Assembly (NCBI GenBank): GCA_951406725.2
Contig: OX597815.1
Coordinates: forward strand, 63,426,001 to 63,490,000
Source: Octopus vulgaris
Lineage: Eukaryota
Length of the DNA: 64,000 nt
Direction: 5' to 3'
Under the pieces are notes generated by a model. It saw only the letters and a program-made list of their open reading frames with translations. It had not been told where the DNA came from and searched no databases. Every line of letters starts with the position of its first letter. Position 1 is the stretch's first letter. Of the stretch, positions 3,339 to 63,635 are shown piece by piece. The translations under genes and the position numbers were made by a program.

Positions 3339-3426
3339 AACGTTTACATGCAAAACCCTGAGTTCCTTGATAGCGACTTATCCGAGCCGTGCAAATGAAA
3401 ATCTCAGGGTTCTGAATGTAAACGTT
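3339..3426. repeat. Fold-back inverted repeat (~26-bp arms) next to (TA)n
   Basis: aacgtttacatgcaaaaccctgag ... ctcagggttctgaatgtaaacgtt. Confidence 0.8.
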
Positions 3427-3562
3427 CCATGTTGCATTAATTAATAAATTTAGTTCACTATTTCTAACGATATTGAGGCCTACCTCTAGTGTTGATGCAC
3501 ACACAGTTTGACAGATAAATTCAAATAGGATGTACTTATTAACTATTCTCCTATCACATTTT

Positions 3563-3594
3563 CCTTGAAGAAGGACTTTGTCCGAAACGTTAAG
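3563..3594 (+). ncRNA. Minimal type I hammerhead-like motif (degenerate)
   Basis: TTGAAGA-a-ggac(ttt)gtcc-GAAA-CGTT; C3 altered, palindromic ACGT stem III as in Penelope minimal hammerheads. Confidence 0.5.
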
Positions 3595-4066
3595 TTTTCC
3601 ACTCCTACTTCACTGTATCCTTCTGTTAATTATATATTATATTTGTGTGTGTGTATATACTAGGGTATTACTCGTTATATGACGTGTAACTTCAGGAGTA
3701 ACGTCTTATTACCGTGGATAATCAGTTACAGTTAAAATTACATGCGCACACAAATACGCACGCACATATGTAGACATACTATGTAGACATACTGTTTCTT
3801 TATCTCCTACCAACTCCTGAGTTTATTTTACTAGTTAAACCGTACTTGTTTGTGTGCCATGCATTTAGCGTCTGTAGACTACGAAGCTTCTCTCATCTCC
3901 ACCATCCTCCTGCCACTGCCTGTAAATATCAGCGTTCTCTCTATCGACATATGTCAACTCTCTCTCTCTCTCTCTCTCCCTCAACCTCTCTCTATATAAT
4001 GGAAAAAGAAAAACTAACAAAACCCATTTCTATCGGCTATCATTGTCGATTGAGTTTAGATCCCAT

Positions 4067-4453
4067 TTGTGGTTGTGTGGTAAGACGCTTGCTTCCAATC
4101 ACACCGTTCCGAGTTCAGTCTCACTCCGTGGAACCTTAGGCAAGTGTCTTCTTCTATAGCCTCGGGCCGGCTAAAGCCTTGTCAGTGGATTTGGTTGTTA
4201 GAAACTATAAGAAGCCCGTCGTATATATATATATATATATATATATAGACGCACACGCACACATATACATTTATGAGTGTGTCTTTGGGTCAGCGTTTGT
4301 CCCCTTACCATCGCTTGACAACCGATATTGGGGTGTTTAAGTCCCCGTAACTTACCGGTTCGGCAAAAGCGATCGATACAATAAGTACTAGACTTACAAA
4401 GAATAAAACTTGGGGGGGGGGGCAATTTCTTCGACTTTAAGGTGGTGCTCCAG
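4067..4453 (+). mobile_element. SINE family B with internal TA/GT microsatellite
   Basis: tggttgtgtggtaagacgcttgct...gagttcagtctcact...aagaagcccgtcg(ta)n...cgcttgacaaccgat...ggtgctccag. Confidence 0.85.
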
Positions 4454-5482
4454 TTTTCCACTCCCACTTCACTGTACTCTTTTGGACAGGTTACATATGT
4501 CCCACCTATACCAGAAAAAAAAGATCAATATATGTAAATCAAATCCCATCAGTAAAAAATATCGAAAATAATCGACGTCAGAAAGAGAAATATAATAATC
4601 CGTGATTGTTCGACAAAACTAGTCGGGAATCGGCCCATATCTGGAGGATTTCCTGAATCTGGAATTCTAGCAAGAGAAAGTAATCATTAGACTTGAAGCT
4701 GTAGCAACCGCACTTTGCTTTTGTTACATTTATTCAAACTCCAAAGAATCCCTCTCAAAACATGGCTTTGATGCTTCTCCAGAGTAGCAGCAGGACTAAA
4801 ATGTTAAATTATCAGCCATACTACGACAATATTGAAAACATCAATAACACTGAAAGATAACGAAAGATAATATAAGCTTGTCCGATCCCCAATTAAAGCA
4901 CTTTGAGCGAGGCTTCTTAACCTCAAAATATTTTAATCTGGTCCTAATTTTGAAGCTGAGGAATCAATAAGGACCAACTCAAAAATATTTTCTTCATCGT
5001 AAATGATTAAAAACGTTGGAAAAGAATGAATATCCAGCAAAAGAACCTCTACAAAATTATTCAAGAATTTAACATTTCTATCAAAATAACTACGGAGTCA
5101 AAGAAATATGTTGAAGCTAATATACGAAGAGGAAAATTAATTAAAATTCAAATTATTAAGATACACAAATCAGAGAATTCTAAGGAGAGACACCTATAGA
5201 AATATTCAAGAGTAGATGAGGTTGATACAACACAAAGGAATGGAGAAGAACATGTAAGAGTAGAATAGTAGATTGAAGTCAGACGAATATTAAATCAGAA
5301 ATGTGTTATTAGATATAAATACACTAGCCATCACAATTAATCAGAAGGTTTGTGTGAATTAAAGGGATTAATAGAAACAAGAAAAATGTTTCAACTTTTT
5401 TTAACTATAAGATACTGTATTGGTATAAAAACTCAAGGCAAAACTTGAAAATTATGCACACGCACACACACACGCACGCACG

Positions 5483-5607
5483 CAAGGCCTTGGTCAGCCC
5501 GAGGCTATCGTAGAAGATACTTACCCAAGGTTCAATGCAGTGGAACTGAACCCGGAACCATAAGACTGGAAAGCACGCTTCTTACCACTCAGCCACGCCT
5601 GCGCCTA
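5483..5607 (-). mobile_element. SINE family B, 5' half
   Basis: Reverse complement reads taggcgcaggcgtggctgagtggtaagaagc...gggttcagttccact. Confidence 0.8.
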
Positions 5608-6065
5608 CTGTAGAATATATTAATAAAATAACACAAAAAGGAAAACAAAGATGTATTTTGGGGGCAGGAAACAATAACAATACAAAATAAAGTAAATAAA
5701 TAAAATTGTTAAAAAAAAGATTGATTCGATGAAGAACTTCGCAAAATGGAGGGAAAAGCCTTGATGCTCAAAATTCGAAAAAGTGAACTCAGAGCAAGTT
5801 AATTAAGTATAGGAATCAGCAAGTACTCAAAAGCACTGTGCTAAAACCAGAAAATCTGTACATATCAATGCAGAGTTAAACAAATTATCACAGAAAATAG
5901 TAAAAGCAACAGAATGCCTTCAACTATATATGATGATATCAACTTATAGAAATTATGACCTTCAAATTCACGTAAAGATAGGATATATCCAGATATCTCA
6001 CACGTCTTCTACCCAGAGAGTACAGTAGTAGTTTTTCAAACCTTCTCACTAATTATTATTTTTAT

Positions 6066-6910: not shown

Positions 6911-6988
6911 TATAATCATCATCATCATCATTATTATTATCATTTTCATTATTATCATTATTATTATTATTATTATTATTACTATTAT

Positions 6989-7548
6989 TGAGTGAGAGAG
7001 CAGTTCATGCCATCAAAGTGACACTGGGGTAAAATATACGAAGCCCAAAATACCCATCATGACTACCCGTCTGATAAGGGTACACCAGACACATGCATCA
7101 CAACCATATGTGTGCGACATGGTGATCTCATAAAAAGATAAACAGCACATGACCTTGCAGGTGGGGCCCAGTTAGAATTTTCTTCTGGTTGAGTAGCCCA
7201 TCCCGCTCAAAAAGGTCCCTGAATAAGGATTGTTTAAGGATGTTGAAAGAACCACCCATGTTTCCAGAGGTGAATTATTCAAACCCCAAAGAATCCCTCT
7301 CAACACACGGGTATGATGCTCCCCCACTACTTCTGCTCGTGATCAGAGATGCACATATCGTCAGCCACTAAGGGACATGCTCAACTGGTTAAGGTCAAAC
7401 AACTGACAAGCAAATATGTGGCATTGAGCAGAATATTTGCTGTAGCCCATCTTTTATACCAAGACAAAACAATGTACATGATAACACTTCCAATCAGTTA
7501 TGATCAGAAGCCATGAGAGCCACTGCCTGGTACTGCATCAGGGCATTT
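6989..7548 (-). mobile_element. ~560-bp non-coding interspersed element in a (TTA)n array, full length
   Basis: Highly similar to 26830-27389 (opposite strand) and 8444-8931; both ends abut (TTA)n; strand inferred from truncation polarity. Confidence 0.85.
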
Positions 7549-7552
7549 ATTA

Positions 7553-7619
<67 letters not shown>

Positions 7620-7620
<1 letters not shown>

Positions 7621-7976
7621 CAATCACCAGATTAGACTGTTGGAAAAGAAAAGAATCCTAACATAGTGTTACAACAAGTAACCTTAGAAGCCAAGAAGAC
7701 TCCTAAGTGTCCTAGCTGTCCCTAATAACACTATTTTCTGGAGCTGTACTAAACTGGGTTTTATGCCTATTTCCTCTATCCATCTGTTCAGATCTTTACG
7801 GATAGTTCCCAATGCACTTATAACTACTGGGATACATTTTACCCGCACTTTCCATAGTCTCTGTAATTCAGTAGCTAGATCCTGGTACTTTACTATTTTT
7901 TCTATACTTCTCATATTAACTTTTTCATCATTTGGGACTGTAAAGTCAATTATCTGACACTTTCTATTCTCTTTAT

Positions 7977-8061
<85 letters not shown>

Positions 8062-8185
8062 CAAATCAGGCCTTCTAGCTTTTATTACTCTGTCAGTCTG
8101 AATATTGAAGTCCCACATCTTATATTTCTTGCTTTTTAGTACTTTACGAGGTTCATATTCATACGATTTACCAGTATTGATGTTG
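7620..8185 (-). mobile_element. 5'-truncated R4/Dong-type LINE, restriction-like endonuclease domain with in-frame (GTA)n expansion
   Basis: WDFNIQTDRVIKARRPDL-(V)n-DKENRKCQIIDFTVP...EKIVKYQDL...PVVISALG...LQKIVLLGTARTLR. Confidence 0.9.
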
Positions 8186-8199
8186 TTATTATTATTATT

Positions 8200-8381
8200 A
8201 AGGCGGCGAGCTATCAGAATCGTTAGCAGACTCGACAAAATGCTTAGCAGTATTTCGTCCATCTTTAAGTTCCGTTATGAGTTCAAATTCCGCCGAGGTC
8301 GACGTTGCCTTTCATCCTTTCGGGATCGATATAATCGACTAGTCCCTTCTCCACAGGTTTGAGGCCTTGTTCCTCCAGTAG
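8200..8381 (+). mobile_element. SINE family A
   Basis: aggcggcgagctatcagaatcgttagca...gagttcaaattccgccgaggtcgac. Confidence 0.85.
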
Positions 8382-8383
8382 AA

Positions 8384-8443
<60 letters not shown>

Positions 8444-8929
8444 GAGTGAGAGAGCAGTTCATGCCATCAAAGTGACACTGGGGTAAAATATACGAAGCCC
8501 AATATACCCATCATGACTACCTGTATGATAAGGATACACTAAGCAGATGCATCACAACCATATGTGCTCGACATGGTGATCTCATATCAAGATAAACAGC
8601 ACATGACCTTGCAGGTGGGGTGCAGTTAGAATTTTCTTCTGGTCGAGTAGACCATCCCGCTCAAAAGGTCCCTGAATAAGGATTCTTTAAGAATGTTGAA
8701 CGAAACAAGCATGTTTCCAGAGATGGATTATTCAAACCTGAAAGAATCCCTCTCAACACACGGTTATAATACTCCCCCACTACTCCTGCTCATGATCAGA
8801 GACGCACATATTATCTGCCACTAAGGGACATGCTCAACTGGTTAAGTTCAAACAACTGACAAGCAAATCTGTGGTATTGAGCAGAATATTTGCTGTAGCT
8901 CATCCTTTATACCAAGACAAAACAATGTA

Positions 8930-8931
<2 letters not shown>
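8444..8931 (-). mobile_element. Truncated copy of the ~560-bp (TAA)n-targeted element
   Basis: Colinear with 6989-7478; lacks the last ~70 bp on the right. Confidence 0.85.
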
Positions 8932-8962
<31 letters not shown>

Positions 8963-8963
<1 letters not shown>

Positions 8964-10569
8964 TACTTTTAATCTGCATGTTTGATGCAATCACCTGCCG
9001 GGGCACACCCAGCGCCCTAGGGCAAGTGAAGGTTAAGAGTTGTTGAAATATAGCTGAAAGCTTGGGGAGGGGAAGTAGAGAAATATCTCCATGTAATACA
9101 AACACAAACATTTACATTGATAGGGTTTTTCTAAGGATGTGGGCAGTACTTGTTAGCACAATCTTTTGGATTTCCTTGAGACATGGTTTTCCAGGGATAT
9201 TGTCTAGGTGTTTCTGACATCCCTTTTTTATCATACCTAGGGCACCTACAATAACAGGAACAGTTTTTGTTTTAAGATTCCACATCCTCTGTATTTCGAT
9301 TTCCAGGTCCTTATATTTACTAAGTTTGTCAAATTCCTTGACAGATACATTTTTATCAGTGGGGACGCTTACTTCTATTAGTCTGCAGGTATTTTCTTCC
9401 CTGTCTTTAACAATTATGTCTGGTCGATTAGCCTTGATCGTTCTGTCAGTGTTGACTGGAAAATCCCAGAGGATGGTGACATCTTTACCTTCAACAACTG
9501 GCTGAGGATGGTGTTCATACCAGTTAGCAGGAGTGTCGGATTTGTAGTGTTTACATATCTTCCAATGTATATACTGTCCTACCCTATCGTGGCGATTTTT
9601 GTATTCGTTTGGTGTCAGCACAGGACATCCCGAAACGAGATGGTCTATTGTTTCGTCAAATGTGTCACAGAATCTGCATTTAGGGTCAGTACCGTTTCGG
9701 AGAACGTTAGCCTGGTAATTTCTGGTAAACAAGCTTTGATCTTGTGCTGCCATTATGAAGCCTTCAGTCTCTGCTTTCAATCCAGAACTCTTCAGCCACT
9801 GATGGGTTGTTGCTTGGTCTACATCAGCATTTTGGCTTCGGAGAATGTATTGTCCATGCAGGGGCTTCTGGCTCCACCGCCTCTCAATTTGATTCTGCCC
9901 ATTCTTTTTTGCAGTCTGCCTGATTCGCTTTGCTTGCTTGGTAGCAGTGGTTTCTGGCTCTTCACCTGATTCAAGGTTAATGCCTAGTTCCCTTTCGAAC
10001 TTATAAGCTTCCTTGACAATAGAATGCAGCTTTTTGCTGCTTTCGTGTTCACACACAAGTCGCAGCATCCAGTCTTTTGTACTAGATAGGTACCTGTTCA
10101 TTCCTACAGTAGAGGTCTTATAGCACAGCTCCAATTGCATCATTCCTCTCCCCCCGCTGCTTCTAGGTAGGTACAAGCGGTCTACATCTGCCTTAGGGTG
10201 GTGCATGCTCCTGGATGTCAGTAACTTTCTTGTCTTCCTGTCCAAGCGTTGGAGTTCCGTAAGGTTCCAGTTAATGATGTTAAAACTGTACTGGACTACT
10301 GGAAGTGCCAGGGTGTTAATGGCCTCAATGCAATTTTTGGAGTTGAGTTCAGTCTTCAGTACAAGCCTTATTCTCCTATAGTACTCCTTTCTTATTTTTT
10401 CCTTCATAGTAGCATGATGTATACCATCTCCTTCGTTGATTCCTAGGTATTTGTAGCTTTCTTGTGGGTCAAGTTCCTTGATGGTAGTGTCAATATCTAA
10501 TTTAACAGAAGCTGTTTGCCTGAGCTTGCCTCTTACAAAAGTTGCTTTAGCACACTTATCAAGGCCAAA

Positions 10570-11039: not shown

Positions 11040-11231
11040 AGTAGTAGTAGTATTATTATTATTATTATTATTACTACCATTATACTATTCTATGCACTAC
11101 CCAAAATTTTTTATCTCTATATATGTATATGCATATACAAACATACATACACAGACACACACAGAACACACACACAGGACACACACATAGACATACTCAT
11201 AAAGACACACACATACACATAGATATACACT

Positions 11232-11305
11232 ATTCATTAAATAATATTAAATAATCTCTTACCAGATGGAGTATATTTTTGTTGATCTTACCTTCACGGA
11301 ACGGC

Positions 11306-11310
<5 letters not shown>
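11232..11310 (+). repeat. Solo copy of the 3' tail of the 12378-12717 hairpin element
   Basis: cattaaataatatt...atctct..ccagatggagta..tttttgttgatcttacctt is the reverse complement of 12395-12453. Confidence 0.7.
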
Positions 11311-11768: not shown

Positions 11769-12377
11769 GTAGCAGAAATCAAATTTTTTTCTCTTTGTCC
11801 GCATTTTGTGAAAACCATTTCGAAGAAAAAGCTTAACAGCGCCATCTACTCCTATTTATCTGTTGGTCTGACGACGTACAGAATGGTGTTAAAGTCCTGA
11901 TGTAGTTTTCTTGTCTTTGATCTTTTAACGTTTTACTTTATCTACGGTTTCCTACTCATATCTTCTTTTTAATTACAGTCAGTCCTCACTATCTGCCAGG
12001 CTATTTAACCGTATAGGTATACGGCCGAATATCTACCTCTGAATAAGTCAAGCTAGTAACTTTTCTATACGGTTATCTGCCAATACCCATCAACACCGTC
12101 ACATTCCACTCCTTCATATTTCCCGTTTACACACACACACACATACACATATATTTAAATATATACATATACATTTGTTCATATATAAATACAATTCATA
12201 TACATATACGCATACAAATATACATCCACACACACACGCATACACACACAACATATATATATATATTTATACATTCATACATATATATATGTACATATAC
12301 ATATATATATACATATACATATACATACATACATATATATATATATGCATATGTATACACACACACAGACACACACA

Positions 12378-12717
12378 TATGGTCTACTTTTCCATTAAGG
12401 TAAGATCAACAAAAAATGTACCCCATCCGGGGAGAGATAAATATTGTTTAATGTGCACAGTATATAGTTATGAGCTACTAATAGTTTCATACATTAAAGA
12501 TATCATCTACGCAGGTATTAAAACACACCAAGGGTCACCAAGTAATGTTCAGGCTCTGGGTATATGGATCTTATTAGGCTCTTTCTTCCATATATCGAAA
12601 GGCCAAGCGTACAAACCTGAAGATTTCTTGGAGACACAAGGCGAGTTTAAAACGAAAATTTCAGTGTATAAAACTATTAGTAGCTCATAATTATATTCTG
12701 CGTGCATTAAACAATAT
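12378..12717 (-). mobile_element. Fold-back hairpin element: arms 12441-12498 / 12659-12717, unpaired tail 12378-12440
   Basis: atattgtttaatg...gagctactaatagttt vs aaactattagtagctc...cattaaacaatat; arms carry GAAACTATTAGTA (hammerhead 3' half) and the loop has CTGAAGA. Confidence 0.75.
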
Positions 12718-12720
12718 CTA

Positions 12721-12814
<94 letters not shown>

Positions 12815-12816
<2 letters not shown>

Positions 12817-12975
12817 AAAAAGGAGATGTAGAACACGAGTTGTTATATATAAAAAAAGGAAATGAAGAAAATGCTGACAAAATAATTTAAGTAAGGGAGA
12901 GTGTATTTAATTAGGTGAAAGTTATTTTTACCGGTTGCGCATTTGTTATGCTTATCAAAAGATAGAGTTCCTTTC
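12815..12975 (-). mobile_element. Short (TA)n-flanked element with degenerate hammerhead at 12925-12960
   Basis: Minus strand TTGATAA-gcat(aacaa)atgc-GCAA-CCGGTA; 3' tail caactcgtgt shared with 52985-53010. Confidence 0.55.
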
Positions 12976-12994
12976 TGATTGATTTTTTCTCTTA

Positions 12995-13561
<567 letters not shown>

Positions 13562-13669: not shown

Positions 13670-14372
13670 ACTCTGTAACTCTTCTGAACGGTTCCCTTGT
13701 TTAAGATGGTGAATGCTACCATGATCCTTGCCTTTAGTTCATCTTTGGTGTTACAAGTAGTTTTGTTGGTCTCTCGTTCAACACCGCTCCACACATAATA
13801 ATGAAGGTGGTTGAAGTCTGGAGAGTTAGGTGGTCAGATGTTAGGGGTGGTGTGGCCGCAGAAATTGTCTGACAGCCATGACTGAGTTTTCCTGCTTGTG
13901 TGGCATAGTGCAGAACCCTGTTGCTAGACATATGGTCTTCTAGCAGTCACCCTCTTGACCCAGGGCGGCACTACCTCCTCCAGACACTTGATGTAGGCCT
14001 AGTGCTGAGTCCGAGGGCGAGTGAGATGAATGGAGGCATAACGTTGTCATCACTAGTGATCACTCCAAACACCATGATGTTGACTGGATGTTTTAATTTT
14101 TATCACTCTCGGTACAGGTCTTCAGATTGCACTGACCTTAGATTGACACCCAAACGCTGAAATGTTCGTATTGGGGCTTCTGGCGCGAATGCCATGAATT
14201 ACAGCATGCTGCTTCCAAATTTCTGTCAGAGTGAAGTACGTCTTGGTGTAGTATTTATCATAGATTGCTCCTAACTGAACATACTATACTGTGTAGTTAA
14301 CAAAATAAAAAACAATGCGCATGTGCGAAATTAAAAATATAAATTGGCAACAATTTACCCATCTCACCCTTA
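13670..14372 (-). mobile_element. Tc1/mariner (maT/DD37D-like) deletion derivative, degenerate
   Basis: Minus strand encodes WSGVERETNKTTCNTKDELKARI; colinear with 34183-35072; end agggtgagatgggtaaattgt. Confidence 0.8.
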
Positions 14373-14793
14373 CTGTCTTTATCGTTATTTGTACTGTTTT
14401 TTCTTCATTTGTATTGCTTTTACGTCCTGTTCTTGTCACTTTTTTTATTACCCCTCCGCAAAAATTTTTATTTAATTCATTTTGCGGGAAGGACTGTTTC
14501 GGTGTGGTCGTGTTCTGCTCTTACCTTCGAAACACGCATTGAGTCGAAACAGGGGAAGCTGAAGAAGGGAAATGCTCTTTGTGTTGTTTGTCTTGCACTC
14601 TGTTTTTTCGTTGTTAAAAAAAGTCCGTTTCCTTGCTTGTGTTTTTTGTTTTCGTTTCTCGTTGTGTTCTACGTTTATTTATGGTGTCCTGTACTCATAT
14701 ATGCATGTATATATACATATAGATGTAGGTATATACATATATGTATGTATGTATGCATATGTTTTATTTATTAAATTGTTATTATATATATAA

Positions 14794-20266: not shown

Positions 20267-20633
20267 TAGGGTAGCAAGAATATTCATAGAAAAATTCTTA
20301 GTTACCAGTGGTCTAGCGAGAAAGAAAAAATTAGTCAATAGACTATATATTATTCAAAGAAGAATACAGTGTACGTTCAAACACAAAAGAGATACCCGAA
20401 GAATAGGTATCTGTCTCGCTAGAAAGAGCAGTTAAAACTCCAAGCCACCAATTGTTGTAATTCCGAAAGTGATTGGAAGATAAAACTTTTACCTTAATCC
20501 ATAGGATTTAGGTAAAAGTTTTTATTTTCCAATCACTTTCAGAATACAATAATTGGTGGCTGAGTTTTAACTGCTCTTTCTAGCGAGTCAGATATCCTAT
20601 CCTTCTAGTATCTCTTTTGTGTTTGAATGTACA

Positions 20634-20678: not shown

Positions 20679-20736
20679 TATATACATATACACCTGCATA
20701 TATGCATGCATAAATATATATATATATGCATTACAC

Positions 20737-21625
20737 GTACACATCTTTTTTGCCTGCCTTTCTCTTGTCCGCCTTGTATCGTCAATCTGTCCGAATGTTT
20801 TATTGTACTCTATTGCGTTTTTGTTCCATTTTTGTACTTATATGCACACATAGCGGCGTACGTACACAGTTGTGCTCACCTTATAGTAGGTATGTATCTA
20901 AATTTTGTACGGATCTTACTCTATCATTTATTCCACACCTCTTACTTTCTTCCCTTTTCCTTTTTCTCGCTCCCCTCTCTTTCTCTCTCACACATTTCTT
21001 GGCCCTCTCTTTAACTCCCACTATTTCCCACCGGTTTATCTCCCTTGTACCTTTCTCTTTGTCTCTGATATTTTTCTAATCCTTCAATCTCGTTGTCCCC
21101 TACCCATCTCAGCTCCTTCCACATGATCGGTGTCCGGCCAGATCCCGGCTGGCCGGACACCGACCTGATCTGGCCTGACTGCTGACTGTCAACACCTCTT
21201 GTGTCCATCTCCCATGTTCCTGCCTTTAGGCTTTCACCTCATACACGCCTGCTCAATTTGATTCGTTCTCAGTCGAAAGACGCTTGTTATTTTCTTCTTG
21301 TTTGTATTTGTAATTCGTACCATGTTCTCCATTTTTTGTTTGATTGTTTTGTTTTTTTTGCCTTTGTTGCCGTACACATTCGCTAGCTTTCTTACAAAGG
21401 GGTCTAATGCCCTTAGCGTAGACTTTTTGGTAGGCAACCAGATCGAACCGTCGTAAGTGTAACTGCCCGAAACTCGTCACTTCTGGGACATGACTGAGAA
21501 AAGAAGGCCACGAATGACCCGTCTTTTTTCTACCTTGTCCTAATTGTTGTTTCTCTTGTCCGCCTTGTATCGTCTATCTGTTCGAATGTTTTATTGTCCT
21601 CTATTGCGTTTTTGCTCCATTTATA
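20737..21625 (+). mobile_element. Element bounded by ~75-bp direct repeats (pseudo-LTR-like), (TA)n-flanked, probably Penelope-derived
   Basis: tttctcttgtccgccttgtatcgtc...ctattgcgtttttg at ~20759-20832 and ~21550-21622; related to 33820-34060. Confidence 0.65.
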
Positions 21626-44139: not shown

Positions 44140-44174
44140 GTTTCTGATAAAGAGCTTAGCTCGAAACGTGAAAT
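44140..44174 (+). ncRNA. Minimal hammerhead-like motif (degenerate)
   Basis: gttt-CTGATAA-a-gagc(tta)gctc-GAAA-CGTG-aaat. Confidence 0.55.
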
Positions 44175-44278
44175 CCTTTTTCTTTTCATTCCTGAGCGTC
44201 CAATAACACTGTTTTTATTCCACGTCCTCGCGTTGTTGTTTTTTGTTGCTTGTTCATGTTTGGATTAACTATATATAT

Positions 44279-44415
44279 ACGACGGGCTTCTTTCAGTTTC
44301 CGTCTACGAAATCCACTGATAATGATTTGGTCGGCCTGAGGCTATAGTTAAAGAAACCTGTCCAAGGTGCCCTGAAACTTGATCCATGTGGTTGGGAAGC
44401 AAGCTTCTAACCACA
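44279..44415 (-). mobile_element. SINE family B, 5' half
   Basis: gacgggcttctttcagtttccgtctac...catgtggttgggaagcaagctt. Confidence 0.8.
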
Positions 44416-47205: not shown

Positions 47206-47289
47206 CGTATGTACGTATGTACGTATGTACGTATGTATGTATGTATGTATGTATGTATAATTGGGGTGTCATGACACATAAATTTGAGG

Positions 47290-50131
47290 TGATATAACAC
47301 GAAACTACCAGACCGATAACCTAGACACTCATCGGCACCTATGCCATTTTAAGCAATGTGGCTCTGAGTGAACCTCTTATCAAATACATACTACATATAT
47401 TGACTGGTGAACCAAAGCTGACTCGTCCCGGACACAGCAATAGGTGGCGGATAGTGAAATTTCCCCTCATATATGTGGAACAACTGCAAAATACATAGAC
47501 ACAGGTCTGACGAATTAGCTTCGCGGGCCAACAACTGCAGTGGATCGTCAGGGTTCAGTGGGCCATTGTGTGGTAGCAATGGGCTTACAAAAGTTTCAAA
47601 AGCTCTATAACAGTACTGTGATTAGGCGGGAAAAGGTCGCTTTAAATAAGCTTTGCCGAATAGGGCAGATGATGCTCTCATCTACGTGAAAGCAGACCAT
47701 CTTGAAGCTGGCAAACTCCGACTCCAAACAGACCACAATTGACTCTCTGGCTTTTTTTTAGGTTTGAGCCTAGAGCTAGCAACCCCACCTTGTAAAAGAA
47801 ACACCTGCTATGGAAACGATGAGTCACAATAACAGCTATATACAGAGGCGAAGAAAGGGTGGTAAATTATCTACCGATGCGAGTATATCGAGTTCGGGGG
47901 GAACCCGTAAGGAAGCTCGAGCTCTGACGAACCAGATCTTCAATATCAAAACTATAATCAAAGTAGGCACTTTGACCAGGCGCTGAAGGAAATGAAAGCC
48001 TATTGCCTAGACGTAATGGGTGCCAACGAGATCAGATGGACTGGAGAGGGGCAATTCCACTGCAATGAGATGACTGTTCTGTGCTCTGGGCATGAAGACC
48101 AGCCTATACATGTAAGGAGGCATCACAAGCACTGATTGGATAGAAGCCAGTTATCAACCGAATAATCACAACTAGGTTGAACATTGGAATTGCAAAAGTG
48201 ACCATAGTGCAAATTTATGTCCCTACAGACTCAGCTGAAACATATTAAGAACGCATTTTACAAGCAGCTACACAGTGTCATTGACGAATCCTCTAGTTTC
48301 GACTTCAAACTAGTCAAAGGTGATTTCAATGCCATGATCAACCCAGGCAGATAGGGTATTGGGGTGATCACTAGCCTTCGTGGCTTACAAGATGAAATCA
48401 GCAGCCATAGAGAAAAATTGCTAAATCTCGGCAACACATGTGACCTTAGTGTCGGAAACACTATCTTCAGACATAAACGCATACACAAGATGACGTGGAC
48501 ATCACCTGATGGAAGCATACGGAATGAAACTGACAATATCTTTATAAGCACAAGGCAGCGTAGTTCCCTTCAAGACTTTTGCACCTACCAGGGAGCAGAT
48601 GTAGGATCTGACCACAATCTTGTGATAGGAAAAGTTTGCTGGAAGCTGAAGAAAAACAAGGTTGCAAAGAAAGTGAGATCGTACGCATTAGAAAGATTGA
48701 AAGACCTACGGATAGCAGATATTTTTCATGAGGTACTGCAAAGCAGATTCTAGGCACTGGAAAAGGCAGATGACATTGAAGACCAGCGGATAATGTTTAC
48801 GCGGGCTGTGAGGGAGAAAGCAGATGAGGTACTCGGAAGAAGAGGAACTCACTGGGAACGATGGATTACAGACAACTCGTGGAGACTTGTCGACAAGAGG
48901 TCGAAGCAATAAGGGACCAGGCCAAAACAAAATAAAGTGGAGCACAGAGGATGCAAAATACAAAGAGTTGAACAAACACATAAAAAAGAGCTGCCGCAAA
49001 GATAGGAGGAAGTGGCTAGGGGACAAACAGTAGAAGCACAAGAGGCAGCGGATGCTAACGACACCAAGACACTTTACCGGATAGTTAGAGAATTGAGTAG
49101 AAGCCGCTGTGAGAGCAGTGTTCCAATTAAAAGTAAGGACGGTCGTATCCTACTATCAAGTGAAGAACAGAATCAGAGATGGATCGAACACTTTCAGCGG
49201 GCTTTGAACCCTGTACCTCCATTATAAATGTCGTGTCAGAATAAATGGCGGAAACACCGAGATGTTCGATATTGTTATTGGGCTACACAGGGATGCATCC
49301 TGTCACCCACAGGCAGGGATCAGATGGGATGAAGGGAGGTTATGTAACATGGATTATGCAGTTGTCGTGGTTGTTAACCACACACCTGAAGTACTGCAAC
49401 AACTAACCAATAACCTCAACAGCAATGCAGTTAAAGTGGGCATGCACACAGGCTGTGAGAAGACAAAAAGTACGACCACTAATACGCCAATAAATCTTTC
49501 AGTAACAGTTGGAAGCAACAGTCTGAAAAGCAAAGCGAATTTCAAATATCTAGGAAGAACCATCCACTATGATGGCGACGCGAAAGGTAATGTACAAGCC
49601 CGTATTGGACAAGCTTCAGGTGTATTCAGACGACTTTGCCAGTCCAGTCCAATAATTCCATCACCAAAGGTGTGAAAATCCATCTCTATATGTCGATTGT
49701 AGTGCCTACTGCTATCTATATGTGCGGAACGTGTAAAAGCACAGTAAGCATCATCAACAAATTGGACGTTTTCCTTAAGCGATGCATTCGTGTTATACTT
49801 GGAAAATCGTGGAGGTACTACATATCCAATGAGGAGGACATTACGGTGGTCAGGGCTAGACAACCTATCAGACATCGTTAAAAGGCAAAGATTACGATTC
49901 ATTGGATATATAATATGGCTAACGGAACACAGGCTACCACACATTGTATTGACATGGACACCGGCTGAGAGCAAACGAGGGAGAGGGAAGCTGCCTCAAA
50001 ATTGGTGCAGTACTCTCCGAGAAGAACAGCAATTGACTTGGACTGATGCAAAAACGTCTCCAGCAGATCACACTCAGTGGAAGCAACTCGTTGCCCAATG
50101 AACCGTTAAGAACAGGTGGAACTAAGACTAA
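47290..50131 (+). mobile_element. Degenerate RTE-clade LINE with a large internal deletion in the RT
   Basis: EIRWTGEG; GDFNA; GNTIFRHKRIHKMTWTSPDG; GADVGSDHNLV; WIEHF; GCILSP; FKYLG; RLRFIG; KRGRG; 5' boundary approximate. Confidence 0.85.
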
Positions 50132-50616
50132 TACATGTATTGAGTAGTACTTCCTTTTATTTGCTCTATCCTTCGCATACACACACAAGAATGATAGAGA
50201 GATAGAGAGAAGGGGAGGGAAAGAGATACTGAAAACAAAAATGAATTCACAATAAAATTATTAGGTTGCTACTCGGAGACCAAAAACCGATTACGAGGCT
50301 TCGGATATTGTCCTTTCTCAAAATATAGAATAAAGAGTGGAAAGAAAAGAAAGACAAGAGATTAAAAAGTAATGTCCACGCAAAATAACCCTGTTAGTTT
50401 ATATGGAGGCCGTTAACTGATTAGAATTTGTCGGCAGTCCAAACCTGATGTTCACATCGAATATAAAGGGGCGATACAACCAACATTTTGCTTTAAGATA
50501 CCAACTTCAGCACCACCGATAGTCATATCTATAATTCCTGTACAAGATATATCACCAAAGTGGTGTAGTTTTGAAACATTTTACAACGGAATGCTTGTTA
50601 GCATCTTCCAACATAT

Positions 50617-52876: not shown

Positions 52877-53585
<709 letters not shown>

Positions 53586-53992: not shown

Positions 53993-54465
53993 ATTAGTGT
54001 ACAGTTATACACAAAAGAGGTGACCCTAACAGGACACTTTACATGCTAGAAGGAACAGCTAAAATCCAAACCACGGTTAAGAACAATTTCGAAGGGAATG
54101 AAAAATAAAAGCATTTACCATATTTCTTTACCGGAATTAGGTTTCGAAATTTAATTAACAAATAAAATAATTTCCTAAGCGAAGTTCTCATCAACGGGTA
54201 CGCCAAAGATTAGTATATAATTATGTGATAAAATAGCACATCTCATCTCTGTATATTATAACTTTTCAAATCCACCGCGCAAGCACAGTTTTAGTTGGCA
54301 GCAAATAAAAATGTTGACTTACTAAAATCATGTTAAGGAAGCTGTAAGTTGTCCTGTTAGGGTCACCTCTTTTTTGTTTAAATGTACACTAATTTTATTT
54401 AAAATATATATTGTCTATTGACTATTTTATACATGTAGAAAAATTTCTATAATTTTCCTACCCTG
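53992..54465 (+). mobile_element. Fold-back element, family H1: arms 53992-54043 / 54343-54394, right tail, hammerhead-like motif in spacer (54126-54197, minus)
   Basis: aattagtgtaca...aagaggtgaccctaacaggaca vs tgtcctgttagggtcacctctt...tgtacactaatt; tail gtctattgacta...taccctg; TTGATGA-gaa...ttc-GAAA-cc..g-GTA. Confidence 0.85.
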
Positions 54466-54739
54466 TGTATATATATTGAATATATATATATCTTCAATGA
54501 CACTCCTACTGTTCCTCACGATGGGATCAGAGTAATAGCAGGCACAGAGACGGTGAGGGCGGTGACGAAGATAGACAGACAGACAAAGAAAGAAAGAGAC
54601 AGAGAGGGAGAGAAAGAGTGGGTATATGAGAGAAAGAAAGTGATGATATACAAATTTGCTTAACCATGTCTCTTTGACAGAAATTCCTGTCGCCAGCATA
54701 CTGAACACTATTACTTTTGCTTTATTTTTGCTTTCTTTA

Positions 54740-54823: not shown

Positions 54824-54971
54824 ACACAAAAAACACACACACATAAAATACACTTTAATTGAAATAAAGATTCCCCAAAATTAAACGTATCTAATATAAT
54901 AAATGTGAATGTCAGTGCGTCACACTTATTCAACTTTAATAAATCCTTTCTACTTGAAGTACAAGGTCTCT

Positions 54972-55333
54972 TATTTCGGTGGAAGTGATTCGGTCGATAA
55001 CATCGACTCCAGAACATAACTGGCACTAATTTTATCAATCCCGATGGGATAAAAGGTAAAGTCGGCTTCGGCGGAATTTGAACTCAAAATTTAACGGAAG
55101 ACGGAATACCTATTTCTTTACTACCCACAAGGGGCTAAATACAGAGAGGACAAACAAGGAAAGACAAAAGGATTAAGACGATTATATCGACCCCAGTGCG
55201 TAACTGGTACTTATTTAATCGACCCCGAAAGGATGAAAGGCAAAGTCGACCTCGGGGGAATTTGAACTCAGAACGTAACGGCTGACGAAGCATTTCGCCC
55301 GGCGCGCTAACGTTTCTGCCAGCTCGCCGCCTT
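54972..55333 (-). mobile_element. SINE family A, dimeric form with linker cassette
   Basis: Two ggaatttgaactca units joined by tacctatttctttactacccacaagggg... Confidence 0.85.
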
Positions 55334-55508
55334 AATATAATACAATACAATACAATATAATATAATACAACATAATGTAATATAATATAATGTAATGTAA
55401 TATAATATAATGTAGTATAATATATGTGAATGACAGTGTGTCAGTGTGTCATACTTTTTCAACTTTACTCATTGAGGCCGTAGCCCAACATATACCATTT
55501 TGGAATCA

Positions 55509-55812
55509 GGCTGACTCTGTGAGTAAATAAAAACATTCTGGGCCGAATCCAGAACCACAATTCTGAAATTTTGGATTCCCAAGTTTTCATTACTGTGATT
55601 GTTTTCGGCGATTTTTTTTTACGTGACTTTTTGCGACAAATTTTTTTTGTACGATAACAAATTTTATAATCTAAAGGCTAACTCCATGAGTAAATTAAAA
55701 ACATTTCAGGACGAATCCGGACCTGCAGTCCTGAAATTTTGGATTCCTATCTTTTCATAACTTTGATTGATTTTGGTGATTTCTTTTACAAGTTTTTTTT
55801 TTTTGTGACAAA
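55509..55812. repeat. Diverged tandem duplication, period ~167 bp
   Basis: ggct.actc..tgagtaaat..aaaacatt...ctgaaattttggattcc at 55509 and 55676. Confidence 0.8.
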
Positions 55813-56009
55813 TATGATCATTATTGGGATATGAATCTGCAGGAGGCAATTGCAACAAATTCTCCAAAACAAGTCAGAGATCTGTTTGTAGGTCTTCACA
55901 TTCAGGGTCAGTTGCTTAAAAGCTATATACTAGCTTAAAAGCCGCCCGATAGGCATCTTGATGCAAACAAGAAAAAGAGAACTCAAAATATGAATATATG
56001 TATATTTTT

Positions 56010-56446
56010 ATTAATATTTAGTATAAGTAACAGAGTGACTCAAGGTTCGAGAGTTTCGTGTGTTGGCACTTATTAAATTATTCACAGGTCGAAGGTCTGT
56101 AAGTTTATATAGATGTTGACAGATAAATATATTTCCCTATGGAATGTTCTAGAACGTATTATAATAATGTCACGTGGATAATTCAAACTGTTTACCCGTT
56201 ATGTCGTTCAATAAGCAAATACATAAATTTGCTTATTGAACGACATCTCGGGCAAACATTTTGAATTATCCGCGTGACATTATTATAATACGTTCTAGAA
56301 CATTCCATAGGGAAATATATTTATCTATTTTATCAGCAGCTATAAAAACTCACAGGTCTTTGACCTCTGAATACTTTGATAAATGGTGCTAACGCACGAA
56401 ACTCTCGGGCCTTGGGTCACTCTGTTACTTCTATTTGATATTAATA
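56010..56446. repeat. Fold-back palindrome, ~210-bp arms, ~6-nt loop, hammerhead-like remnant in the arms
   Basis: Centre caataagcaaat-acataa-atttgcttattg; TTGATAA..gtgc(taac)gcac-GAAA-ctctcg at 56376-56412. Confidence 0.92.
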
Positions 56447-56455
56447 TATGTATTG

Positions 56456-56631
56456 TATAAAAGATCGTGGGTAAAGCCAAAATAATGCGAAGTAAATGCA
56501 AGGTAAACCACAGGAAAACAAATATGTGAATTAATGTAGATTTACCTTGTATTCAATATTTCGAGATTATGATCCCATCTCCAAAAAATTGACGAATGTT
56601 GCCGATGTGGCCTTACCCACGATCTTTTATA
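56456..56631. repeat. Fold-back inverted repeat, 24-bp arms with an inner hairpin
   Basis: tataaaagatcgtgggtaaagcca / tggccttacccacgatcttttata; inner tgcaaggtaaa / tttaccttgta. Confidence 0.85.
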
Positions 56632-56674
56632 GAATATATTCTACACAATGCTTCATAGTAATTATTCCATTATA

Positions 56675-56732: not shown

Positions 56733-56889
56733 TTATTTATCTATCTATTTCATATATGTACCACAGGTAAATGCATATATGTCTATTGTGTGTATATTAC
56801 CCTGTATGTATCTGTGTATTATTTACGATTTTCTCTCTCTCTTCTCTTCCCTACTGTCTTTAGTTATGTGGTGTGTGTGTGGTGGGTGT

Positions 56890-57277
56890 TACTGTTCCGG
56901 TCGTGTTTTCTATTGAGGCTCGGTCTGTTTACTGCTATGTGTATAGCCTCTGTGATCTAAGTGTCCTGTCATTTCTATGTGTGAATAGTATTTTAACCTC
57001 TATGCTAATATTCGAGCCTCAATGTTGGTAGAGCGCTGACGAGCTTTTCTCTGACGTTCTCCTATGCTGCGTGCAGTCTCTGCAATGTAGGTAGCTGTCA
57101 TGTTTCTGCACCGTCCCCCAGTACATCGTAAGCTATACACTACATTCCTAACCTTACAGTTAGTTAACCCGTGGGTTCTTCCTATATACAAAAAATTGCA
57201 CGCTGTACAGAGGGACTTATGAATGGGACAGATGCTACAGATCAGGAATTTTATAAGGGCATCAGGCCTCTCTACTG

Positions 57278-57280
<3 letters not shown>
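56890..57280 (-). pseudogene. Penelope-like element GIY-YIG endonuclease fragment (3' end of ORF)
   Basis: CSICPIHKSLCTACNF...NCKVRNVVYSLRC...C...TYIAETARSIGER, then after frameshifts EAIHIAVNRPSLNRK. Confidence 0.85.
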
Positions 57281-57342: not shown

Positions 57343-57569
57343 ATGCGTACCAGAGTAAGCACATAAATGTGAAACAAGGTGAAGAAAATAGTACTGGAAT
57401 ACCGGAGGTAGAGTAATGTCCTTTTTTATTAATGCTGCAAAAACATCACAAAAATATCACAAGAAACTGCTACTCAGAGTTTCATGTTCCCATTCTCAAC
57501 TATGTCCGACGAACTGAAACGTGAAACTCTGAGTAGCAGTTTTTCGTGATATTTTTGTGATGGTTTTGC
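57343..57569 (-). mobile_element. Fold-back hairpin element (palindrome 57437-57569, left tail) with hammerhead at 57503-57538 (+)
   Basis: Arms catcacaaaaatatcac..aaactgctactcagagtttca / tgaaactctgagtagcagttt..gtgatatttttgtgatg; tgt-CCGACGA-ac..gt-GAAA-ctctga-GTA-gca. Confidence 0.85.
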
Positions 57570-57587
57570 CCGTTTCTTTCTGTGTTC

Positions 57588-57623
57588 CTTTCTGTGGAAG
57601 AGCGTAAGCTCGAAACGTTAAAG
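57588..57623 (+). ncRNA. Minimal hammerhead-like motif, variant core CUGUGGA
   Basis: cttt-CTGTGGA-a-gagc(gtaa)gctc-GAAA-CGTT-aaag. Confidence 0.55.
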
Positions 57624-58223
57624 ACTTTTTCACTTCCCGAGTTGTCTACACCACCTGTCTTCGTCTTTTGTTGTTGTTTTTTGTGTGAATTCTCCCTATA
57701 TATTTATACACACACACACATGTGTGTGTGTGTATGTATGTATGTATGTATGTATGAGTGGTAGCACAAAATTTTCTTTAAAGCCTTGTTTCTCTTGTGT
57801 TACACTGATACCCTTTTGTTACTCTCACCATCAAAAATCTACAGCTGTCAATAGAAATCTGTTTAAACAGCTACTATTGCGTTACGTAGTTATACCTATC
57901 TTCATTCTTAAATGGAGAACCTGTGGAGGTAAAGGGCATTGCCATTTCTTTCTGACGAATGAAATGAGAACTCGTAAAAGAACTGCATGAGCTTACGGGT
58001 ACAGGAAGCGAATAACTTATTTATACAGAAAGTGAGTGACCGATGGAGAAAATACGATATGTCACAGGATAAGCCAGTGTAGTGCTTGTGGAGACGGTGC
58101 CCAGGGGACCCAAGGAACTCTCAAATGTCTGACTATGCTTTATTGTTTGACCAAGTAACAAAGATGATATGGAACTGTTAGGTAAGAGATGACCATTGTG
58201 ACACGTCAAAAGAACTGCAAGTG

Positions 58224-60493: not shown

Positions 60494-61720
60494 ACATACG
60501 ATTTATGACTTCTTATGTCCATTCGAAGAATTTGCAGACATATGTAATCTATCAACGAACTTTGCGCAGGAATATGTCGACTTTAAGATAGAAACATCAA
60601 CTCTATATGTGTGCGCGCGCGCGTAAGTTTTAGAGATAGAGTGGGTATGTGTGTAAAAAAGAGAGAGAAAGAGAAAGAGAGAAATAATGTGAGAATCAGA
60701 GAGAGTGGGTGTATGCTTCTTTGTAAGATTGTGCTACGTTTTGATCCTAATGTGTCTTCGTATATGACTTTATGTCCATAGTTCTTAATCCAAATATTAA
60801 TGTATGTAGATATATTCTACGTATATTTACATACATGTTTATAGCTATATATTGGTCTTTATATAAGAATACATGCCGTGCATATACATACTATAATGCT
60901 TAACATATATATATACCTATGTGTATGTATGTATATACTTGTGTGCGTGCGTGTGTGACAGAAATTTCGCATATAGGAAGCATAGCATAAGTGATGACTG
61001 TCTTGGAATTAATTAGTCTTAAATTTATTTAAGTTTATTCAAATTGATAATCGCAACTTTTGTAATAATACATTTGGTGTTTTTTTTATTTTAATGAAAC
61101 AGGTGTCGAGCACAATTTAAGTATGGAATTTATACTTTCCTTATCTTATTGTAAATATGTTGCTCTCAAAGATATTTTTAATAAAGTATTGGAGTTTAAC
61201 CGTTTATTGATTGATATATTAATTACCGTTGATATATTCTTTCATGTTTGTACATCAGTTCCCTATATGAATATATTGCATGTGTGAGTGTTTGTGTGTG
61301 TGCGTGTGTGTATGTGTTGCTGTGAGTGAGTGTGTGTGTGTGCATGTGTGTGTGTGCGCGCGCGCGTATAATTTACTGGAAACTAAAATTTCGCAAATCC
61401 CTAGAGTTTTTCGTTGACGATGTTCGGACGATTATGAAAGCTGGAAACAAAAATTCAGTATTTAAAACCCATGCTGCGAAGTTATCTGAATATATATATT
61501 CCACGTCGTAAAAAAGATAGGTTTGGTAAGAAAAAAAAAATCACTAGATGCTTCAGATATATTTTTATTCCTAACAACAATTATTTGGAATATTTGCTTG
61601 GGAAATTATATCCAGTGGATCTCGAAGCAACTCCATAAATGAGACTAACTATTTAGATGTTAAGGTGGTTACTGTATATGGTTAGCATTCATAATAACAG
61701 CTAATATTAATTTCTACGTT

Positions 61721-61907
61721 AAGGTGGCGAGCTGGGAGAATCGTTAGCAGGTAGGGCAAAATGCTTAGCAGCATTTCGTCCGTCTTCAGGTTCTGAGTTC
61801 AAATTCCACCGAGATCGATTTTTGCCTTTCATCCTTTCTGTGTTGATAATGTAAGTACCAGTTGAGCACTGGGGTCGATTTAATCGGCTTCTCCCCTCAC
61901 TCAAAAA
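61721..61907 (+). mobile_element. SINE family A
   Basis: aaggtggcgagctgggagaatcgttagca...gagttcaaattcc. Confidence 0.85.
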
Positions 61908-62344
61908 TTGAAACTAATACAAATTTATAGACTGCATGGTTGCCATTGGCCTGATAATAGATTTCCTCTTTGGATAGCATATAATGTGCATTTCAGTCAA
62001 GTTTTTAAATACCGTAGAAATATAAATGAGGTTGAATTGTTTGGGAATAAGGTTAAAAAGTTAATGGTGCATGTGGAAAAACAAGGTTAAAGTAGTAAAG
62101 GGTTGGTTAATTGCTTGGGGAGAAACATGGTGAACGTTTGAGAGAATATAGAATGATCTCAGGTTTACAGCCGAGCAAGGAATTGTAAGGAGTTTTAGCT
62201 TAAGGTGAGGTTATATCACTGTTTAGCAGTTTTTGAGTTGATTGTCATTCATTGTCGTGTGTAACGTCACTTCCACTTCCATAGGTATGGACTTCCGCCT
62301 GTTGATCGCTAATGATCTCTTAGCATTCTTTTCTTTTCTACTAT

Positions 62345-62480
62345 AGGCACAAGGCCCAAAGTTTTGGGGGAGGGAACCAGTCGATTAGATCGGCCCCAGT
62401 GCACAACTAGTACTTATTTATCGACCCCGAAAGGATAAAATGCAAAGTCGACCTCAGCGGAATTTGAACTCAGAACGTAA
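62345..62480 (-). mobile_element. SINE family A, 3' part
   Basis: aggcacaaggcccaaa...tcgaccccgaaaggat...ggaatttgaactcagaacgt. Confidence 0.85.
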
Positions 62481-63065
62481 ACAATGATCTTTTAGTATTT
62501 TGGCAGCAATGGGTTTGCATGTAAGTGTGGCTTTCATTAATTTCTTTGCAACGCGTGGAGTTGTGTTACCTTATACTTAGAACAATTTTATGATGATATA
62601 TTTGTTTTACCAATTTTAAATGTTTGTAGACGTTAAGCGTATATGTTAATGTTGTTTATTCTATAATTTCAGTGTCGTTTAAGTTGTTACCAAATAACAG
62701 GAACACTATGTCGTTTAATTAGTCCTGGATTATTCAGCCCCTTTGTAGTTGGGACGTTTAACTTATGCCTTAATCTGTTTCAGTATGGTAGTTTTTGCCA
62801 TGCCTATATTATTTTATATTATATATTTTATACATAATATTCTTGTAATTCAATTCTATTTTTATTTCAATTTATTTTACTTTCATTTTACTTTTAATTA
62901 GTAATTTATTCAGTTAATTTATTTTATAAACTGAACATATAAATTTAATAGATATTGATCTATGCTTGTATTTTTCCCTGTACATCGTTTGAAAACGTTG
63001 ATTGAAGGGTGTAATGTTCCGCTAGTTTATATTTCATGCTTTTGGTGTGGTTTCATGTTTCATAT

Positions 63066-63472
63066 ATTCTTTTGTTCTTTTACTTGTTTTAGTCATTAGA
63101 TTGCGGCCATACTGGAGCACCGCATTGAAGGGTTTTTTAGCAGAATAAATCGACACCCCAGCACTTATTTCTTAAGCTTGGTACTTATTTCATCGGTCTC
63201 TTTTGCCGAACCCCTAGGTTACATGGACGTAAACACACCAGCATCAGTTGTCAAACGGTGTGGGGGATAAATGCATACACACACACACACATATATATGC
63301 ATATACACGACGGGATTCTTTCAGTTTCCATCAACCAAATCAACTCATAAGGCTTTGATCGGCCCGAGGCTATAGTAGAAGACACTTGCCCAAGGTTCCC
63401 CGCAGTGGAACGGAACGTGAAACCATGTGGTTGGGAAGCAAGCCTATTACCACACAGCCACGCCTGCGCCTA
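63066..63472 (-). mobile_element. SINE family B, full length
   Basis: Ends ttaccacacagccacgcctgcgccta; colinear with 13149-13528. Confidence 0.9.
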
Positions 63473-63599
63473 TGATATGATATAAATTCAGGAAAAACAT
63501 ATCAAGTATATAGTGAGAATTTACAAAAAAAAAGAAAAAAAAAAAGACGAATACGTGCGTAAATAGCAAACAGGTATATTAGTTTAACAATCGGTTAGT

Positions 63600-63635
63600 C
63601 TTTTACGTTTCGAGCCTACGCTCTTCGACAGAAAG
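63600..63635 (-). ncRNA. Minimal hammerhead-like motif, variant core CUGUCGA
   Basis: Minus strand cttt-CTGTCGA-a-gagc(gtag)gctc-GAAA-CGTA-aaag; same family as 57570-57700. Confidence 0.6.

Follow-up and report, generated by a model that had tools for sequence, protein, structure and literature searches.

The window analysed here, a 64,000-nt stretch of the Octopus vulgaris genome (assembly GCA_951406725.2, contig OX597815.1, forward-strand positions 63,426,001 to 63,490,000), is AT-rich, and 16.6% of it is covered by a microsatellite mask. Among its microsatellites lie islands with degenerate hammerhead ribozyme motifs, large inverted repeats that fold back on themselves, and one coding remnant of a Penelope-like element (PLE) (Table 1). 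We propose, with a probability of about 0.8, that the islands are the dead 3' ends (pseudo-long terminal repeats, pseudo-LTRs) of many PLE families, each with a decayed type I hammerhead pointing to a TA-type microsatellite. Judged from sequence, the ten large fold-backs and about 11 motifs are likely of a known kind, and two subfamilies with an altered ribozyme core are likely the new part.

Table 1. Motif-bearing islands, fold-backs and the PLE coding remnant in the window (positions are those of the 64,000-nt stretch).
Position	Strand	Feature	Details
3324-3643	+	Island with minimal hammerhead relic	Motif 3561-3595; U3.G8-type core, 4-bp stem II, CG helix III, stem I lost; score 26.9; TA-type repeat 53 nt downstream
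11222-11309	+	Second member of the 12368-12720 family, represented by its extreme 3' end (tail region), ends in (TA)n	79% identical inverted match
12368-12720		Head-to-head fold-back (12438-12720), 70-nt one-sided tail	Left arm: Hydra-type hammerhead relic, 12552 to 12476 (-), score 25.7; right arm: more decayed mirror, core 12617
12814-12996	-	Island with U3-A8 hammerhead relic	Motif 12962-12925; A13C lesion, ACCGGT helix III; score 27.7
14763-15025		Fold-back, 63-nt one-sided tail, family of 20257 and 53993	No hammerhead in this copy
20257-20634		Fold-back, 112-nt one-sided tail, family of 14763 and 53993	No scored hammerhead
23436-23635	+	Island with U4C hammerhead	Motif 23518-23607; 10-bp stem II, long loop II, ACA-CA-TGT helix III; score 31.1; TA-type repeat 36 nt downstream
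28553-28824		Old fold-back, 67% identity	No confident hammerhead
29749-29825	+	Probable U4C hammerhead relic	Manual parse; upper stem II of 9 bp above a broken base, helix III ACA-GT-TGT, GUC site
33409-33577		Fold-back directly abutting (TA)n on right	One weak inward-facing motif (23.8)
38841-39117	-	Island with best-preserved motif	Motif 39055-38975; cores complete (CUGAUGA, GAAA), GUA site, stem I of 4 bp, stem II base mismatched (A.A), long loop II; score 31.8
44110-44280	+	Relative of family A, ends in (TA)n	Minimal hammerhead relic 44140-44174; A6 canonical, G8A and H17G lesions; score 25.5
52983-53507		Young head-to-head fold-back, 220-nt arms, 95%, 34-nt one-sided tail	Outward U3-A8 hammerheads 53106-53067 (-) and 53418-53457 (+), ACCGGT helix III; scores 24.5, 28.4
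53993-54500		Inverted pair of the 14763/20257 family, unequal arms, tail on right	54126 motif on left arm scores 19.7, within noise
56009-56446		Fold-back, each arm with a probable outward U3-A8 hammerhead relic	Core at 56378 (+); Hydra-like stem II and helix III (compare Hydra-2_aMil), stem I missing; no scored hit
56448-56639		Short element, 32-nt inverted ends, may be a MITE	No hammerhead
56733-57278	-	3' remnant of probable Neptune-type PLE open reading frame, Cys linker and GIY-YIG endonuclease, frameshifted	No hammerhead found behind remnant
57351-57569		Family B fold-back (57437-57569), 86-nt tail on left	U4C hammerhead 57502-57539 (+), ACTC-T-GAGT helix III, truncated mirror on left arm; score 25.6
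57570-57704	+	Family A 3' end	Minimal hammerhead 57588-57623, complete except A6U; score 30.8
63500-63660	-	Second family A copy	Minimal hammerhead 63635-63600, complete except A6U; score 30.8; 88% over 58 nt to 57569-57626

Motifs were ranked with a soft score, which was revised to accept long loops II, unusual loops in helix III, U at position 17 and one additional base at position 11; its significance is somewhat flattered, because the revision followed sight of the candidates and of the published alignments. Compared with 100 dinucleotide shuffles (chunks of at most 500 nt, microsatellites kept in place), the window gave 14 hits at scores of at least 24 (shuffle mean 3.4, maximum 9), 7 at 26 or above (mean 0.91, maximum 4) and 4 at 30 or above (mean 0.06), and the reversed window gave 1, 0 and 0 hits at these thresholds. 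The observed count was attained by none of the 100 shuffles at any of nine thresholds. The first-pass annotation of this DNA had named such a comparison as a check on its motifs, and their number is indeed above that in all shuffles; the type I hammerhead architecture in decayed form exceeds chance in the window (7 hits at 26 or above versus 0.91).

Thirteen hits scored 24.5 or more. Two of them, 51548 (25.9) and 59089 (25.2), were dropped and attributed to chance, which should yield some hits at such scores, since one sits in unrelated sequence, 4.3 kb away from an upstream repeat, and the other within a microsatellite. The 11 accepted motifs comprise ten of the 14 coordinates in the first-pass annotation (3563, 12925, 23522, 38976, 44140, 53068, 53419, 57503, 57588 and 63600) and an additional one, 12552(-). 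The coordinates 29750 and 56376 are probable hammerhead relics by manual parse only (for the former, the best soft score is only 20.5, and for another core), and 54126 (19.7) and 35653 (no hit of 19 or more) were left without support. The same annotation had put the density at roughly one ribozyme motif per 5 kb. With about 11 real ones in its 64 kb, the window comes to about one per 6 kb; each has at least one lesion or non-canonical base, and these are decayed single motifs, none passing the published descriptor discussed below.

Two architectures recur among the motifs. The minimal one is represented by 3565, 44144, 57592 and 63631 and, with a 4-nt palindrome, by 12958, 53102 and 53422; the second (12552, 23525, 29753, 39051, 56378 and 57506) has a 3-4 bp palindromic helix III, and some copies are mismatched at the base of stem II. 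Helix III is palindromic (CG, CCGG, CACATG, CTC-T-GAG or CTA-T-TAG) in 10 of the 11 accepted motifs and imperfect at 39051, which is not independent evidence because the soft score rewards such palindromes. At 12552 it reads ACTA-T-TAGT, as in Penelope-1_HM, and at 23525 stem II is present in the predicted fold. Repeat-bounded islands of 150-500 bp, as described by the first-pass annotation, were recovered for nine of its 14 coordinates (segments of 183-525 bp), while the remaining five lie in longer ones (691-1365 bp). Island size carries little weight in any case, because 40% of all non-microsatellite bases fall in segments of 150-550 bp anyway.

The motifs have a clear polarity relative to the microsatellites. 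Of the 12 top hits outside microsatellites (a set that includes 51548), 11 are followed by a TA/CA-type repeat that lies no more than 200 nt downstream of the predicted cut site, at a random expectation of 0.31 (p=2e-5). Within 150 nt, such a repeat was found for 9 of the 12 top hits versus 13 of 40 low-scoring hits.

The fold-back palindromes reported earlier are real. The window contains 12 local inverted pairs, versus 0 in each of 20 shuffles: ten large ones, a 37-nt hairpin, and one pair of dispersed-repeat copies (21643/22243). Five of the ten large fold-backs have one arm that directly adjoins a microsatellite (0 nt) and another that is extended, by 34 nt at 52983 and by 63-112 nt at four others. 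These one-sided extensions are common to several copies, as seen in alignments of 14763/20257/53993, 52983/12814 and 12368/11222. Outward-facing motifs are present on both arms at 12438, 53017, 56009 and 57437, and four fold-backs were predicted to form long hairpins (-76 to -310 kcal/mol, 69-90% paired). Thus, inverted, pseudo-LTR-like and 5'-truncated copies, an optional 3' tail on one arm and an association with (TA)n, all features of PLEs, are found together in the window, and the original proposal, in which 5'-truncated PLE products bear type I hammerheads, form inverted partial copies and sit in (TA)n, is consistent with all that was tested and with the published anatomy.

Several observations accompany these elements. 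The centre of the 20369 fold-back (20490-20520) resembles a possible helix III of the weak 54126 motif, as if the turn-back had occurred at that hairpin, although the alignment is ambiguous. The island at 57351-57704 joins two unrelated motif families, B and then A, in the same orientation, and 86 nt separate the two cores; the motifs would not pair as a dimer, because their helix III palindromes differ. The 3' stretch of the 3324-3643 island recurs at 4452-4484, where the 33-nt copy is followed by about 1 kb of A-rich degraded sequence (to 5452) with no Neptune-type protein match. A Penelope-like N-terminal motif seen there by eye at about 4860-4920 was unsupported by tblastn, hidden Markov model (HMM) or profile comparison.

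Families A and B were followed into other genomic copies using the contigs of 4 of 24 listed sequencing runs, aligned to 57360-57700 at 80% likeness. Three DNA runs, each under another organism code, gave 7,884 to 9,149 matching contigs apiece, and a fourth run that is RNA by guess only gave 1,781; summed contig depth is not copy number. For 55358-56670, no RNA run was listed. In family B, G at 57515 (T in the window) makes up 82-95% of depth and restores a stem II pair, and A at 57536 (G in the window) makes up 67-91% and turns a stem I wobble into A-U, while no alternative letter reaches 10% at 57507, the U4C position. In family A, every alternative letter stays below 10% at 57595 (A6U) and throughout stems I and II; the variation listed comprises N7, one loop base (the window's own change) and three CpG sites. 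U6 is found in both intact window copies of this family and A6 in the relative at 44144. The U4C change also occurs in the unrelated motifs 23525 and 29753, and it would create a CpG, opposite to the usual direction of decay. The U4C 7-mer alone is not above chance in the window (3 vs 1.4).

These patterns indicate that A6U in family A and U4C in family B are a family rule in two high-copy subfamilies rather than decay. The aligned contigs were selected for likeness to the window copy, alignments may clip near 57503-57508, and depth is not copy number, so the claim is limited to large subfamilies and does not extend to all copies. Other loci of these families also fold back, with different centres. 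We tentatively suggest, at somewhat less than even odds, that hammerhead subfamilies of the Penelope type are very abundant in octopus genomes and descend from source elements with an altered core (A6U for family A, U4C for family B and for the unrelated motifs 23525 and 29753), and that published descriptors and Rfam overlook them. If true, these would either be natural active variants, or elements with crippled ribozymes reached high copy number, and cleavage would be dispensable for Penelope transposition in nature. The family A pattern had 0 matches in viral contigs and 0 in metagenome contigs. U4C has been described in a viroid and A6C in a phage, both reportedly with lowered activity. 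The literature searched yielded no report of U4C or A6U in retrotransposon hammerheads and no octopus survey, the one listing of A6U being a paper on twister ribozymes; Lunse et al. 2017, on PLE hammerhead variants, may cover them.

A number of results weigh against the assignment of the islands to PLE 3' ends. The published descriptor of minimal hammerheads (min-HHR), coded from the supplement of PMC4209133 (strict core CUGANGA or UUGANAA, stem II, GAAA, UH, stem I), gave 0 motifs in the window, as did two relaxed versions allowing a U3-A8 core or a helix III of up to 9 nt, and Rfam gave 0 hammerhead matches at its gathering score over the whole window. The first-pass annotation had named tools of this sort, applied genome-wide, as a check. 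The scoring scheme that did find motifs was our own and was tuned once. None of the 11 motifs folded was stabler than its shuffles (z -1.26 to +1.33), and two-sided covariation within a family was not seen, the other copies of family B only repairing lesions of the window copy. A confident motif is lacking in five of the ten large fold-backs (14783, 20369, 28562, 33409 and 56448), 53993 bears only a weak one, and the weak motif at 33409 faces inward. Neptune-type protein queries matched only 56900-57278 in the window and tied no motif family to an open reading frame (ORF), and the endonuclease remnant at 56733-57278 has no detectable hammerhead. A possible endonuclease end in the loop of the 53017 fold-back was unsupported by tblastn, HMM or profile comparison (probability 0.6%).

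The min-HHR descriptor recovered a control motif in a metagenome locus (L002), and, when U4C or A6Y was permitted, it returned two window motifs (57592+ and 63631-) versus a shuffle mean of 0.05. A strict scan of the window gave one motif with one core mismatch and three with two. Rfam searches of four sub-regions at E<=10 gave no hammerhead, and a broader search gave none among the 150 of 440 matches listed; neither hammerhead nor twister appeared in Rfam, the top matches listed being microsatellite and hairpin artefacts.

Some of the families, above all family A, could instead be non-autonomous mini-elements consisting of the pseudo-LTR only and copied in trans by Penelope-like proteins, a reading that we consider unlikely. 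Very deep cover of family A is confined to about 110 nt with unlike upstream sequence in many contigs, the three window copies of family A and its relative diverge upstream of the motif, and pseudo-LTRs have been reported to be sufficient in cis for trans mobilisation (PMC3846280). However, varied 5' ends are the expected outcome of 5' truncation, the cover drops upstream because the window copy itself ends there, and no unit of fixed length was seen. The term retrozyme-like, which the first-pass annotation had also applied, implies spread via circular RNA made by the ribozyme; type I motifs in non-coding units of 150-500 bp do have the size of animal retrozyme monomers, and retrozymes have been proposed to derive from Penelope pseudo-LTRs. 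This reading fails, because head-to-tail tandems define animal retrozymes and none are present here: a same-strand neighbour copy within 1.5 kb was found for 0 of 13 motifs, and the pairs are head-to-head. The motif architecture is minimal or Hydra-type with no core intact, and we regard spread as retrozymes as extremely improbable.

It is also very improbable that the fold-backs as a whole are miniature inverted-repeat transposable elements (MITEs) or fold-back DNA transposons with TA target sites, the motifs being there by chance. The TA flanks around the fold-backs, the 963 terminal inverted repeat families reported for O. vulgaris (PMC13282606), the five fold-backs without a motif and the short inverted ends that are all that 56448-56639 possesses are in line with this idea, which may apply to 33409 and 56448. 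Against it, motif counts are above all 100 shuffles, the conservation of one-sided tails from copy to copy is at odds with terminal inverted repeats, and the fold-back centres differ among copies of one family.

We return to dead PLE 3' ends as the preferred explanation. The motifs, their polarity, the head-to-head fold-backs, the one-sided tails and the high copy number of two families are direct observations. As to their origin, published work suggests that a GIY-YIG endonuclease would nick (TA)n. Target-primed reverse transcription would then begin about 35-170 nt downstream of the hammerhead, alternative start sites producing the optional tail, and would stop after 150-500 nt, and a turn-back would often add an inverted 5'-truncated copy. 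Internal initiation of reverse transcription has been published as a source of tails. A dimer of the motif would cleave the tandem transcripts of source elements, weakly in vitro or with protein help. The copies in the window likely do not cut, because they are single and damaged and fold-back RNA is predicted to form one long hairpin. The description of these islands as under-annotated is probably inaccurate for the repeats as such, since PLEs are reported to make up 6.83% of O. vulgaris in 190 families (PMC13282606), and applies to the ribozyme motifs alone, which escape standard tools; with boundaries drawn by eye, the candidate islands add up to about 9% of the window, which is of the same order as the published share.

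The coding remnant at 56733-57278 is probably Neptune-type, from the domain order and Cys linker of its relatives. In tblastn, 56900-57278 matched the reverse transcriptase (RT) and endonuclease protein P0018 of Octopus vulgaris at an E value of 1e-11 and P0002 of O. bimaculoides at 3e-12 (HMM E 5e-11); among the proteins with a species name, the two nearest to the remnant are from these two octopuses. For the 92-aa remnant, a word-based protein search gave 0 matches and an exhaustive one gave five; Pfam assigned it no family and showed sub-threshold GIY-YIG and RVT_1 matches for its relatives. The ORF queries were 23 Neptune-type proteins, all derived from this one remnant. Its relatives were found at three metagenome loci. 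Of these, only L002 continues beyond the ORF; there, about 140 nt downstream of the matched ORF, lies an intact hammerhead in sense orientation, followed by (TA)n. By eye, the sequence beyond this repeat (1780-1861 of L002) resembles the beginning of another PLE ORF.

Other repeats in the window include 20732-21621 and 33798-34058, related repeat-bounded elements (69% column identity) without a scored hammerhead that could be Naiad-type pseudo-LTRs; the former has a 72-bp direct repeat at both ends (20759-20830 and 21550-21621) and a 37-nt hairpin at 21127, and Rfam found nothing in 33798-34058. The T-rich segments 14343-14695 and 24621-24839 end in TA repeats and contain internal hairpins and no scored hammerhead, and head-to-tail duplications of 125-185 bp without hammerheads are present at 24056-24312, 27415-27760 and 55497-55787. 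Retroelement 3' ends in (ATT)n/(AAT)n were found at 6982-10569 and 26833-27387, which resemble Dong/R4 elements; the former contains a 485-aa open frame (9115-10569, minus strand) with a weak zf-RVT match. Coding sequences of long interspersed nuclear elements (LINEs) are represented by a remnant at 17685-20169 (580-aa open frame, RVT_1 E 8.5e-29) and by a long degraded LINE-like stretch at 47260-50150, presumably RTE-like. The inverted copies 13677-14369 and 34186-34887 (82% over 703 nt) are a probable DNA transposon remnant. At least three dispersed families resembling short interspersed nuclear elements are present in many copies (875-1283, 8201-8383, 27415-27810, 54943-55335, 61720-61910 and others), one of them often lying on either side of TA/CA repeats.

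Among PLEs, Naiads have no hammerhead (PMC8557442), and mutants of its core are reported to leave insertion in vitro unchanged. Abundant natural subfamilies with a fixed non-canonical core would provide a ready test pair. In addition, ribozyme counts for cephalopods based on Rfam (235 Hammerhead_1 in giant squid, as published) may be far too low if the window is typical.

The closest known motifs are the min-HHR in metazoan PLE pseudo-LTRs (PMC4209133). Like those in the window, they are type I, with an extra base after A9, a G10.1-C11.1 pair and a palindromic 15.2-16.2; they have U3-A8 and U3.G8 cores, allow U at 17, belong to many unrelated families per genome and are mostly single, with some opposite-strand pairs 100-700 bp apart in Schistosoma. 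In contrast, no U4C or A6U core is found among the listed examples consulted there, whose descriptor finds no window motif, and the supplement file searched had 0 matches for Octopus. Hydra-clade PLEs, including Hydra-1_Obim of Octopus bimaculoides, share with the window elements insertion into (TA)n (a preference of 26 of the 27 listed families), a hammerhead close to the 3' end, a palindromic helix III of 3-4 bp, with sequences that agree with those tabulated for the clade, a mismatch at the stem II base, and an inverted 5'-truncated copy with motifs on both strands, as in Penelope-13_HM (PMC8557442). The motif of Hydra-1_oBim has another sequence, five 10-nt window motifs had 0 matches in the supplement of that study, and the loops II of about 40-50 nt at 23525, 29753 and 39051 exceed those of its Hydra rows. 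The general PLE anatomy given in the same work comprises 5' truncation, an inverted 5' copy, a 30-40 nt tail and microsatellite bias. Neptune-clade PLEs have RT, a Cys linker and, at the C-terminal end, a GIY-YIG domain, as do the relatives of the 56733-57278 remnant, and the same bias (PMC8557442); the remnant lacks a hammerhead, whereas its relative L002 has one. Animal non-LTR retrozymes (PMC7229834; bioRxiv 10.64898/2026.07.22.740005) resemble the islands in their type I motif, short non-coding unit and proposed Penelope origin and differ in their head-to-tail tandems and intact canonical ribozymes. Finally, although the window arms have no ORF between them, unlike the Penelope elements of Adineta vaga, the inverted pseudo-LTRs of the latter match them in being head-to-head, with a tail on one and palindromes at the junction, an arrangement for which self-priming has been proposed (PMC3846280).

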